64,000 nucleotides of DNA. Source: Escherichia phage vB_EcoM-LTH02. The DNA is taken from the sequence record PP430346; one strand, written 5' to 3'. Below the pieces are notes generated by a model, which made no database searches, was not told where the DNA came from, and worked only from the letters and a program-made list of their open reading frames with translations. How positions within the stretch are numbered: the stretch's first letter is position 1; the number at the start of each line of letters is the position of its first letter. Below are positions 25,237 to 27,245 of this stretch, piece after piece. The translations under genes were made by a program, and so were the position numbers.

Positions 25237-25280
25237 AATGACCTCAAAGTTATATTAAATTTTGTATTACGTTGAGTATA

Positions 25281-25309
25281 AAAATAAGCTATAACACCTG
25301 ACTTGTCAA
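25281..25309 (-). promoter_or_regulatory. Candidate sigma70-like promoter for gene 24853-25236
   Basis: On the minus strand TTGACA (25309-25304), 17-nt spacer, TATTTT (25286-25281). Confidence 0.3.
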
Positions 25310-25327
25310 CAGATTTTATAGCTTATT

Positions 25328-25374
25328 TTGGCAGATTTTTTTATAAGGCTACTGCCATCCTTCCATACATTACC
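25328..25374. repeat. Conserved 47-bp block X, copy 1
   Basis: TTGGCAGATTTTTTTATAAGGCTACTGCCATCCTTCCATACATTACC; identical to 26863-26909; contains inverted repeat TGGCAG/CTGCCA. Confidence 0.7.
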
Positions 25375-25576
25375 TTACCACACCCTACCATACCTAACCA
25401 AACTACACCATACAATACCTTGTTAAAAGACCTTGTTTAAATGCCTTTTAAAAAGGTAAGTCTCATTTTAATGTAGCTGAGACTAACTACCCATACATTA
25501 CCTTACCATACCAGACCTCACCCTACCTTAACTTACCTTACTCTATCCTACCAAACACCACTTAAAAACCCTCTTA
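25355..25576. repeat. G-free CA/T-rich tracts of degenerate TACC-like units (island 1)
   Basis: Plus strand has no G at 25355-25421 and only one G (25514) across 25482-25576; built of TACC(A/T)-like units. Confidence 0.65.
25423..25492 (-). terminator. Conserved module Y copy 1: minus-strand intrinsic terminator with conserved downstream leader
   Basis: On the minus strand, hairpin GGUA..AGUCUCA-loop-UGAGACUUACC followed by UUUUU; 70-bp block differs from copy at 26968-27037 at 2 positions. Confidence 0.5.
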
Positions 25577-25594
25577 GAAGACTCTTAAGTGATG
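25559..25594. repeat. Conserved block Z copy 1 (CACTTAA...TTAAGTG inverted repeat)
   Basis: CACTTAAAAACCCTCTTAGAAGACTCTTAAGTGATG; repeated with one indel at 27144-27180; followed by a second hairpin with loop TTTTTATGTAGC. Confidence 0.55.
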
Positions 25595-25697
25595 TAATCG
25601 GATTTTTATGTAGCTCCGATTAACTACCCATACCAAGCCTAACCTGACCGCACCAAACTTTACAACACCACACCATACCTGACCATACCAAACCTCA

Positions 25698-25749
25698 TTA
25701 AAAGACCCTCTTAAAGACCTTTTAAAAAGGAGCCTCCGAAGAGGCTACC
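25698..25749 (-). terminator. Y-like module copy 3: terminator directly downstream of gene 25758-26198
   Basis: Same leader TTAAAAGACC(C)TCTTAAAGACCTTTTAAAAAGG joined to a different hairpin (GGAGCCTC-CGAA-GAGGCT); on the minus strand the hairpin is followed by UUUUU. Confidence 0.5.
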
Positions 25750-25757
25750 TAGTCAAC

Positions 25758-26198
25758 TTAGAAAGGCTTTCTACGTTGCTTGTTAATGTTAGCTTTCATA
25801 GCAGCTAAGTGGTTTTGCTGTTCAATTAGTCGTGAACGTTCTTGGTGGCTAAGTGCCATAGTGTTCACATTCTCAATCGCTTGAGTGGCTTGCTTTAAAG
25901 CACGACCAATCTTACCAGACATTTTACGTTTTGCAATAGTTGCTTGATGTTTAGGTTCAACCACACGATAACCAACACCCATTGAAGCAACCAGATAAAT
26001 CTTCTCTTCTTTAAGAAGTTTTTCAATGAACTTCTCAAGCCGGTTTAGACGTGTAAGCGCATAAGCCTTCATCTCATCTTCGTACTTAACAATGTCGCCT
26101 TGATAAGTTGGCTTCACAATACCTAAGAAGGTATCCATCTCAGAGTGTGATACAGTGTCACCGTAACTAAACTTTGCTGCTAATGCTTTTGTATTCAT
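25758..26198 (-). CDS. Hypothetical protein (cassette gene 2)
   Basis: 146-aa ORF; ATG at 26198; flanked by structured non-coding islands. Confidence 0.45.
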   Translation of the reverse strand: MNTKALAAKFSYGDTVSHSEMDTFLGIVKPTYQGDIVKYEDEMKAYALTRLNRLEKFIEKLLKEEKIYLVASMGVGYRVVEPKHQATIAKRKMSGKIGRALKQATQAIENVNTMALSHQERSRLIEQQNHLAAMKANINKQRRKPF

Positions 26199-26200
26199 AA

Positions 26201-26788
26201 TTAAACGTTACCTTCTGAAATAACTTCTACAGAAAAACGACCAAAGCGTGGACGCCAATCACCTACACCACAAAGGTTACCAGCATTTTCCAGAACCATC
26301 AAGAGTTCTTCTTTGGTGATTTGCTCTTCATCGAACATCAAACCAAACTCTACAGACCAATCACGGAAGATTGGACGGTAGCTCATAACTCGTGCTGTAC
26401 CAATCTTAACAGATTTAGCATAGATAAAATCTGGATTCTTAGCAAGTTCTTGTGGGTTTGCTGGACAGTTCTTGATAGTCATTGGGAAGACTACATCTGT
26501 CAGCATAATAGCTCGGTCAATTACCTTACCAAGTTTGTTGAGTTTTGCACCAGACTTGATACAAGCCTCAATCATCTCACCGTTCATAACAAAACCTAGC
26601 TGCTCATCGTAGTAACAAGAAGTCACCAGTTGACTTTCTGCTAAGAGCGCATAATCTTCGTCAGTCTTTTTACGTTTACTGGACAGAGACTTGTGATATT
26701 TTGTCAGAGGGTTTAATGGGTCTGACAACGTATCGTTATGGCTCAAGAAAGGACGAGTACCAGTGATTTTGATATTTAGCAGTTTCAT
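26201..26788 (-). CDS. Hypothetical protein (cassette gene 1); track start at 26803 is a GTG, ATG at 26788 preferred
   Basis: ~195-aa ORF; GGAG 8 nt upstream of the ATG at 26788; no motif recognised. Confidence 0.45.
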
Positions 26789-26862
26789 AGCATTTAGCTC
26801 CACACTTTAGTTGATTGTTAAGTTGTTTGTAAAGAACCCTCAACAGAAGACTCTTTAGAAAC

Positions 26863-26909
26863 TTGGCAGATTTTTTTATAAGGCTACTGCCATCCTTCCA
26901 TACATTACC
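26863..26909. repeat. Conserved 47-bp block X, copy 2
   Basis: Identical by eye to 25328-25374. Confidence 0.7.
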
Positions 26910-26967
26910 AAACAGTACTGTGCCACAACACACCATACCCAACCCCACCTAACTCTACCACACCTCA

Positions 26968-27037
26968 TTAAAAGACCTTGTTTAAAGACCTTTTAAAAAG
27001 GTAAGTCTCATTTTAATGTAGCTGAGACTAACTACCC
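26968..27037 (-). terminator. Conserved module Y copy 2: minus-strand terminator downstream of DNA ligase
   Basis: Same hairpin (stem AGTCTCA/TGAGACT, loop TTTTAATGTAGC) and leader as 25423-25492. Confidence 0.5.
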
Positions 27038-27143
27038 TTACCAGACCTAGCCTTGCCTTACCATACCGTACTTTACCTTACCGTACCGTACTTTACCCTA
27101 CCGTACCGGACAATACTTAACCCGACCTCGCCCTACCGGACAT
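27027..27143. repeat. G-poor TACC/CCG-rich tract (island 2) including a 20-bp tandem direct repeat at 27066-27105
   Basis: CCGTACTTTACCTTACCGTA followed by CCGTACTTTACCCTACCGTA (1 mismatch). Confidence 0.6.
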
Positions 27144-27180
27144 CACTTAAAAACCCTCTTAGAAAGACTCTTAAGTGATG
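27144..27180. repeat. Conserved block Z copy 2
   Basis: CACTTAAAAACCCTCTTAGAAAGACTCTTAAGTGATG followed by hairpin GGTGAGTAC...GTATACTCACC. Confidence 0.55.
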
Positions 27181-27245
27181 CTGGTGAGTACCCGTTGGTT
27201 TATGCTGCTCAGTATACTCACCAAATTTTCTATGTCAACAACTTT

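Follow-up and report, generated by a model that had tools for sequence, protein, structure and literature searches.

The 64,000-nucleotide (nt) stretch of Escherichia phage vB_EcoM-LTH02 analysed here (record PP430346; hereafter the window) belongs to a Felixounavirus (Felix-O1-like), and 259 phage records match the 6 kb surrounding the locus under study, mostly at 90–95% identity. At this locus, two open reading frames (ORFs) of 195 and 146 amino acids (aa) lie between two non-coding islands, in a region (~22–32 kb) where the minus strand is the sense strand for every gene. Read on that strand, the elements follow in the order promoter, leader hairpin, guide-RNA genes (vrRNAs) U1 and U2, vipr, putative vap1, terminator and vrRNAs D1, D2 and D3 (Table 1), and each guide module has the same plan, in which a leader or spacer precedes an in-phase GGTNN pentamer array that ends in a conserved hairpin. 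Judged from its sequence, the segment 25281–27238 is almost certainly a complete type II (SUSP1-clade) VIPR (Viral Interference Programmable Repeat) locus, a system for guide-RNA gene silencing. The minimal two-gene layout of such loci is present, namely vipr and a putative vap with long guide-encoding intergenic regions on both sides.

In the available text of the two preprints on VIPR, the system comprises the protein Vipr and vrRNAs of 9–16 YNNGG repeats with a 3' tail, which forms a pseudoknot in the SUSP1 clade (bioRxiv 10.64898/2026.04.26.720920, 10.64898/2026.04.26.720927). According to the same text, SUSP1 Vipr polymerises with one protomer per repeat, hiding GGY and presenting NN; the NN dinucleotides pair with double-stranded DNA, two bases being read and the third skipped, and the resulting R-loop triplex silences transcription. 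Programmable DNA silencing, vrRNA expression and co-purification with Vipr have been demonstrated for SUSP1 (10.64898/2026.04.26.720920, 10.64898/2026.04.26.720927). The passages on targets, where the SUSP1-clade search was limited to the E. coli pangenome, report that guides of this clade converge on a satellite that encodes tape-measure and baseplate-hub proteins similar to those of the phage, and they describe VIPR systems set against one another in the P. fulva clade and, for SUSP1, guides of satellites against satellites (10.64898/2026.04.26.720920, 10.64898/2026.04.26.720927).

The 195-aa protein is 98% identical to PDB chain 36pp_D, 'SUSP1 Vipr protein' (E 6e-128 as a single sequence), and a profile built from 32 homologues of its family, which counts more than 500 members in phages and bacteria, matches the same chain at E 2.3e-82. 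Its AlphaFold2 model reached a predicted local distance difference test (pLDDT) score of 94.5, with the CRISPR RAMPs Csm3, Cas7 and Cas6 as top fold matches; Vipr of the SUSP1 clade is a minimal RAMP with an RRM core, a G-loop and a thumb. The RNA- and DNA-contact residues listed in 10.64898/2026.04.26.720927 occur at the same positions (H17, K33, R39, E71, M72, K82, G87, K88, R138, C173, D177, W178 and R179); position 175 is V in both LTH02 and the PDB chain, whereas the preprint text gives T. The 146-aa ORF, a putative vap1, is 99.3% identical to the phiSUSP1 gene adjoining vipr and has homologues only in Felixounavirus. Its weak, non-significant top fold matches are winged-helix regulators, and the preprint text presents type II vap genes as predicted DNA-binding proteins (10.64898/2026.04.26.720920 and 10.64898/2026.04.26.720927). 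Searches of Pfam-A, NCBIfam release 20 (June 2026) and PHROGs v4 returned no function for either protein, and Rfam 15 no vrRNA family. Both genes are unannotated or labelled 'hypothetical protein' in every phage record listed in the searches, and in a few phage records the guides appear under 'repeat_region', 'terminator' or 'promoter'.

Five in-phase GGTNN arrays of 11–20 repeats each occupy the islands, and a periodicity scan found the 5-nt period nowhere else in the 64 kb and on the gene-sense strand only. Because these arrays lie on the minus strand, the plus-strand composition of the islands is skewed (G 10–13%, C 27–28%). For comparison, 27 related loci were collected, 2 from GenBank matches and 25 from an IMG/VR pattern scan; with the window, these 28 sources hold 96 modules, 81 distinct arrays, 1045 pentamers and 54 guide families. 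Of the 1045 pentamers, 98% have G at position 2, and position 3 is occupied by T (90%) or C (10%), percentages partly built in by an array detector that favours G and Y at these positions. Positions 4–5 are essentially free. The distinct arrays range from 8 to 22 repeats (mode 12). Module flanks are near-invariant across phages and the NN positions differ. An H-type pseudoknot is kept in 22 distinct tails of four classes, with compensatory changes in both stems: S1 occurs as GTAG:CTAC, GTGG:CCAC or AAGG:CCTT, and S2 in four or more covarying versions (AGTCTCA:TGAGACT, TAATCGGA:TCCGATTA, TGGCAG:CTGCCA and TGGTAG:CTACCA), pairs being counted by a custom script that uses no energy model. Repeats and tails alike fit the published description of type II vrRNAs. 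Two-tier G-quadruplexes were rejected as an explanation of the arrays, since the invariant core is G-Y and position 1 may also be A or T. U1 contains an internal near-duplication (GGTAC GGTAG GGTAA AGTAC / GGTAC GGTAA GGTAA AGTAC).

The satellite against which the guides were scored was located independently of them, through tail-gene homology (blastn of window 11200–14400), and was found in 474 of 5,426 complete E. coli genomes. It is an island of ~11 kb bounded by serine-recombinase genes and inserted at several integration sites (yciI/tonB, yecD/DUF72 gene, wrbA and lpxL). The 16 loci that were fetched (L030–L040 and L042–L046) encode homologues of the tape-measure protein (29–39% aa identity) and of the post-tape-measure protein (67–81%). 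The satellite gene for a 'phage baseplate protein' is up to 95% identical in nucleotides (most copies 90–95%) to window 11683–12240, which covers the first two-thirds of the gene that follows the tape-measure gene, a level of identity that suggests recent exchange between satellite and phage.

Scoring applied the published 1-nt-skip rule to the NN positions over these 16 loci (329 kb), with shuffled guides as controls. The best match of U1 was 35/40 (shuffled maximum 27), in frame in the first satellite coding sequence, WP_000999799.1 (L030 9337–9395), the match spanning 19 of its 20 repeats. D1 reached 24/26 (shuffled maximum 20) on the antisense strand of the homologous coding sequence WP_000999794.1 (L032 4713–4750), and with both guides the skip coincides with codon wobble positions. 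U2 matched at 25/26 (shuffled maximum 19) in L034 2188–2225 and L046 1589–1626; a predicted U2 target site reads GTGAGGTATGGGTGGATGGTAGTAGCCACGTTAAAAATC. The best site of D2 (21/26, shuffled maximum 20) lies in frame in a helix-turn-helix gene of variant satellites (L037 2691–2728 and L038 3631–3668). D3 scored 18/22 on a promoter-like TTGAAA-N16-TATAAG ~60 nt upstream of the first satellite coding sequence, and an alternative candidate at L042 2802–2833 gave 19/22; the shuffled maximum was 18 in both cases. The best guide matches within the window itself stayed at the shuffled-guide level, and blastn of the downstream island against the 5,426 E. coli genomes gave no match.

Some of the satellites carry guides of their own. 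GGYNN vrRNAs with a type-C-like tail were detected at L033 1871–1920, L034 2217–2276 and L039 872–931 (minus strand), as well as in L044 and L046. A local tblastn of the 16 loci returned neither vipr nor vap homologues, and the vrRNA-bearing satellites presumably depend on the Vipr of a helper phage. Among the satellite guides, one scores 21/24 against other satellites.

These matches bear directly on two readings in which the arrays are not guides. In the first, the GGUNN arrays would regulate the operon in cis by docking or sequestering an RNA-binding protein that is ring-shaped or cooperative; precedents are TRAP on GAG/UAG repeats and T4 gp32 on its leader, which combines a pseudoknot with repeats. 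This reading would account for the period-5 layout of triplet plus spacer, the modal 12 repeats, the adjoining pseudoknot and the position of U1 and U2 in the 5' leader of vipr, but it leaves unexplained why three guides match external DNA at 88–96% under one fixed code when shuffled guides do not. It also sits poorly with the programmable DNA silencing that the preprints report for a 98%-identical system and with the three arrays downstream of the terminator, and we regard it as exceedingly improbable. The second places the function in the DNA itself, as an R-loop or G-rich origin, a GT-rich recombination hotspot or C-rich, G-poor Rho-utilisation sites on the plus strand that stop antisense transcription. 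The extreme strand asymmetry, the location among replication genes (e.g. ligase and DNA polymerase) and a strong promoter reading into the G-rich strand speak for such a role; however, it predicts neither a GGY phase with free NN, nor compensatory pseudoknots, nor the satellite decoding. The cumulative GC skew merely tracks gene orientation, and a plus-strand promoter was looked for in the islands and none was found, so that we give this role next to no credence. A TRAP-like ring binder, an R-loop origin, a Rho rut site and RecA-preferred GT-rich DNA were all dropped as candidates after the PDB match and the target decoding.

The site that U2 matches in satellites lies in a vrRNA gene, composed of GGYNN repeats and the type-C-like tail. 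This target is present in 5 of the 16 satellite loci, vrRNAs having been detected in three of the first 11 by the array scan. The same guide matches, at 25/26, the vipr-proximal vrRNA gene of 16 of the 27 other Felixounavirus loci, the matched segment covering the last repeats and the type-C tail GGGTGGATGGTAGTAGCCACGTTAAAAATC; phage E9 (vB_EcoM_E9) is among the carriers of the type-C target. The vipr-proximal guide is always type-C tailed in the phages that U2 matches and type-B tailed in LTH02, and Salmonella phage SPJ41 has a near-identical guide with the same tail swap. Because a type-C tail on the U2 gene itself would give ~24/26 self-complementarity (a hand count, not a tool result), the swap plausibly prevents self-targeting. 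Were U2 to bind its target immediately ahead of vipr in a competing phage, the competitor's system could be silenced.

Within the genus, vipr and the 146-aa gene occur together, at 92–100% aa identity, in 117 Felixounavirus records, while ~106 records align with at least 80% of the collapsed spacer that separates the ligase from the downstream gene in Felix O1. The vipr module is thus a presence/absence polymorphism. The Felix O1 spacer is 282 bp long (L041 5633–5914; NC_005282.1 57632–57913) and lacks vipr and vap. It retains the promoter, leader hairpin and terminal hairpin of the locus, together with a type-B tail and a single, degenerate GGYNN tract of 11 repeats, content by which we class it as an orphan vrRNA. 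Its guide matches 11 satellite loci (L030–L040) no better than shuffled guides. Some matches to the collapsed spacer span ~150 bp beyond the query, an excess that an additional module could explain. Recombination between repeated guide scaffolds is the apparent origin of the deleted form. A broader reading is possible, if somewhat less likely than not: SUSP1-clade VIPR would be turned on other VIPR loci, with the guide tail as a mark of self and non-self and the orphan vrRNAs loaded in trans or serving as decoys. Were this so, such loading or decoy action could take place during co-infection.

An earlier note on this DNA had taken the islands for recombinogenic repeats around a mobile or shuffled cassette with cargo genes, by analogy with T4-type promoter-early stem-loop (PeSL) repeats, which bracket hypervariable ORFs. 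The repeats and genes it listed are all present: a 47-bp block identical at 25328–25374 and 26863–26909, a 70-bp block with 2 mismatches (25423–25492 vs 26968–27037), a block of 36 vs 37 bp differing by one inserted base (25559–25594 vs 27144–27180) and the two minus-strand ORFs, the longer being 195 aa from its ATG (in the ORF list it starts at a GTG, 26803). Such sharing is far beyond chance, and the blocks are conserved in related phages, with hypervariable NN positions between them. Each proved to be a defined part of the guide modules: block 1 is the last two repeats and type-B tail common to U2 and D3, block 2 the type-A tail of U1 or D2 together with the spacer before U2 or D3, and block 3 the leader hairpin before U1 or D2. 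The islands yielded no credible ORF, no tRNA (tRNA scan) and no Rfam family (Rfam 15, gathering threshold, 0 matches). The note had also suspected structured non-coding islands and genes with accessory host-interaction or anti-defence functions; the pentamer arrays, which it does not mention, and their covarying tails agree with functional, structured islands, and guides that decode to a satellite and to rival vrRNA genes agree with an accessory module for conflict between genetic elements.

As a full account of the locus, passenger cargo in a mobile cassette is very improbable. In its favour are the 117 records with the module beside the ~106 with a collapsed spacer (Felix O1 retaining a single guide-like module), a U2 tail that looks copied from D3, and the existence of promoter-like and hairpin elements. 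The genes themselves contradict it, because the same two are always found and are never swapped for others: a comparison of related genomes found no alternative genes between the blocks in the 27 loci or the records examined. One of them, moreover, is a RAMP protein that, per the SUSP1 preprints, binds exactly the islands' repeat type, so that the two ORFs are more aptly described as the effector of the system and its accessory. The variation consists of NN dinucleotides in strict 5-nt phase, for which a recombination scaffold gives no reason, and the NN strings decode to specific external targets. What survives of the cassette idea is mobility in the form of presence or absence, and not variable cargo. 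Likewise, the blocks are not simply recombination repeats or promoter/stem-loops around cargo, although they appear to mediate module shuffling, since the type-B tail of D3, that is, the 47-bp block, has replaced the usual type-C tail on the vipr-proximal guide.

Table 1. Features of the predicted VIPR locus of phage vB_EcoM-LTH02, in the order in which they are met on the minus strand; blocks 1–3 are the shared repeats described in the text.
Feature	Position in window	Strand	Basis and remarks
Sigma-70-like promoter, TTGACA-N16-TATACT	27211..27238	-	11/12 match; heads the locus, just past the ligase stop codon; kept in Felix O1; function inferred
Leader hairpin CATCACTTAAG...CTTAAGTGATG before vrRNA U1	27141..27180	-	Block 3; precedes many guides in other phages
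vrRNA U1 repeat tract, 20 GGYNN repeats	27038..27137	-	Pentamer periodicity
U1 3' tail, type A pseudoknot (S1 GTAG:CTAC, S2 AGTCTCA:TGAGACT)	27001..27037	-	Part of block 2
Inter-guide spacer (CTTTTTAAAAGGTCTTTAAACAAGGTCTTTTAATGA) between U1 and U2	26965..27000	-	Part of block 2
vrRNA U2 repeat tract, 13 repeats, putative anti-VIPR guide	26900..26964	-	Pentamer array and target match
U2 3' tail, type B pseudoknot (S1 AAGG:CCTT, S2 TGGCAG:CTGCCA)	26864..26899	-	In the identical 47-bp block; type C elsewhere
vipr, 195 aa, RAMP-fold protein	26201..26788	-	98% identity to PDB 36pp_D; vrRNA polymerisation by analogy with SUSP1
Putative vap1 accessory gene, 146 aa	25758..26198	-	99.3% identity to the phiSUSP1 gene adjoining vipr
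Intrinsic terminator after vap1	25724..25749	-	GC-rich hairpin and T-run
vrRNA D1 repeat tract, 13 repeats	25630..25694	-	Pentamer array and target match
D1 3' tail, type A' pseudoknot (S2 TAATCGGA:TCCGATTA)	25594..25629	-	Compensatory relative to type A
Leader hairpin before D2	25559..25594	-	Copy of block 3
vrRNA D2 repeat tract, ~13 repeats, several degenerate	25493..25557	-	Pentamer array
D2 3' tail, type A	25456..25492	-	Part of block 2
Inter-guide spacer before D3	25420..25455	-	Part of block 2
vrRNA D3 repeat tract, 11 repeats	25365..25419	-	Pentamer array
D3 3' tail, type B	25329..25364	-	In the 47-bp block
Inverted repeat, 20-nt arms, with embedded promoter-like TTGACA-N17-TATTTT for downstream genes	25281..25329	-	End of the locus; kept in Felix O1

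Near-identity to the SUSP1 system is the ground on which the steps of ribonucleoprotein assembly, triplex formation and silencing are extended to LTH02. On that model, LTH02 Vipr would bind one protomer per repeat and sequester GGY, the exposed NN dinucleotides would pair with the target double-stranded DNA with two bases read and one skipped, and the R-loop triplex would block transcription of the target. U1 and D1 would be aimed at the first gene of the E. coli chromosomal satellite, and U2 at the last repeats and type-C tail of vrRNA genes in satellites and sibling Felixounaviruses, its own type-B tail sparing it from self-targeting. The sequence is compatible both with a promoter of its own for each guide and with cutting of the guides from a longer transcript, and the leader hairpin may be a candidate processing or transcription signal.

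Several points weigh against identification of the locus as a working VIPR system. VIPR was first described in 2026, and both sources are preprints (10.64898/2026.04.26.720920, 10.64898/2026.04.26.720927). The 20 repeats of U1, a predicted guide-RNA gene like the other four, exceed the published range. The targets proposed for D2 and D3 are tentative candidates, not clearly above their shuffled controls, and when IMG/VR was scanned for exact occurrences of the ten NN nearest the 3' end of D1, and likewise of U2, neither gave a match. Lastly, the single-sequence model of the 146-aa protein reached a pLDDT of only 68, and its fold search gave nothing significant (best E 0.24).

Both promoter-like sites of the locus sit inside inverted repeats that are kept in Felix O1: at the upstream site (27183–27222), 8-bp arms overlap the promoter -10, and at the downstream site (25281–25329) the 20-nt arms enclose the -35. 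These inverted repeats may be regulatory, or may be terminator/promoter hybrids. Among the vipr matches, GenBank GU169904.1 (Staphylococcus phage SA1, 147 kb) carries at 91679–92263 a copy 99.5% identical to that of the window; a Staphylococcus-labelled record is also among the vap1 matches, and Campylobacter-labelled records match the region. Records with these two labels are probably chimeric or mislabelled. Distant Vipr homologues (32–43% identity) occur in actinobacterial chromosomes within a conserved three-gene cluster (92, 192 and 176 aa), as in Rhodococcus globerulus (L028 5719–7106), and others in Pseudomonas, Mycobacterium, Gordonia and Listonella phages (matches H187–H190).

VIPR is a newly described form of RNA-based DNA recognition with obvious potential as a tool, and the present locus can be recognised from raw sequence alone, although Pfam, NCBIfam, PHROGs and Rfam assign nothing to it. 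The core finding is already known, the locus being essentially the system characterised in SUSP1. What the window supplies is a set of concrete, testable guide–target pairs, in which two guides face a satellite gene and a third faces vrRNA genes. Three details may be new: the anti-VIPR guide with its swapped tail, the orphan vrRNAs that are frequent in vipr-less Felixounaviruses, and a 20-repeat guide matching its target along 19 of 20 repeats; for the SUSP1 clade, the available preprint text states neither the first nor the second of these. Variation within the genus hints at guide-module shuffling, deletion and protection from self-targeting, on which the same text is silent for this clade. 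A search for literature on intergenic pentanucleotide repeat regions of Felixounavirus turned up nothing useful.

Comparison with better-known systems sets these features in context. With T4 PeSL repeats the locus shares repeated promoter/hairpin intergenic blocks in a large lytic phage and some evidence of recombination between blocks, in the tail swap and the Felix O1 deletion. The analogy breaks down over cargo variability, the only defining feature of PeSL cassettes that was examined: the genes between the LTH02 blocks are invariant, and the blocks belong to RNA genes whose coding tract has a 5-nt period. TRAP binds 11 (G/U)AG repeats in the Bacillus trp leader, where nothing is encoded in the spacers and the leader is attenuated in cis. 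Both TRAP and VIPR rely on an oligomeric protein that recognises a conserved triplet recurring at intervals of ~5 nt, around twelve times over, and in both the intervening spacers are free; unlike TRAP, VIPR uses the spacers as the guide and its output is DNA targeting in trans, and the protein folds are unrelated.

The resemblance to Class 1 CRISPR-Cas, with its Cas7/Csm3 filaments, extends to the RAMP fold, one protomer per fixed step of RNA, a thumb that flips bases periodically, a variable guide joined to a structured handle, and mobile elements as targets. In contrast to CRISPR-Cas, the locus has no repeat-spacer array: its 5-nt units have 2-nt variable parts, so that the guide is not contiguous but interleaved, taking up 2 of every 5 nt. 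There are no cas1/cas2 or other cas genes, the only neighbours being vipr and a 146-aa ORF without a Pfam family above cutoff; the target is read in 2-skip-1 fashion with no protospacer-adjacent motif, according to the preprints, and the system is encoded by a lytic phage. In the available text, the preprint authors propose VIPR as the ancestor of the CRISPR backbone proteins (10.64898/2026.04.26.720920, 10.64898/2026.04.26.720927).

The closest counterpart is the type II VIPR of SUSP1, which has the same genus-level backbone and the same position, with the ligase on one side and the early genes downstream on the other. The two Vipr proteins are 98% identical and the adjoining 146-aa genes 99%; GGYNN repeats, 3' pseudoknot tails and guide arrays upstream and downstream recur in both, and so do the target class, an E. 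coli satellite with tape-measure/baseplate homologues, and the wobble-aligned 1-nt skip. The differences lie in the guides. SUSP1 (L008) has one upstream and three downstream arrays, as published, whereas LTH02 has two upstream; the guide repertoire of LTH02 is distinct, its upstream island having a best GenBank phage match of 88.6%, and one of its guides extends to 20 repeats. Finally, the vipr-proximal guide of LTH02 bears a type-B and not a type-C tail, and is aimed at vrRNA genes that carry the type-C tail.

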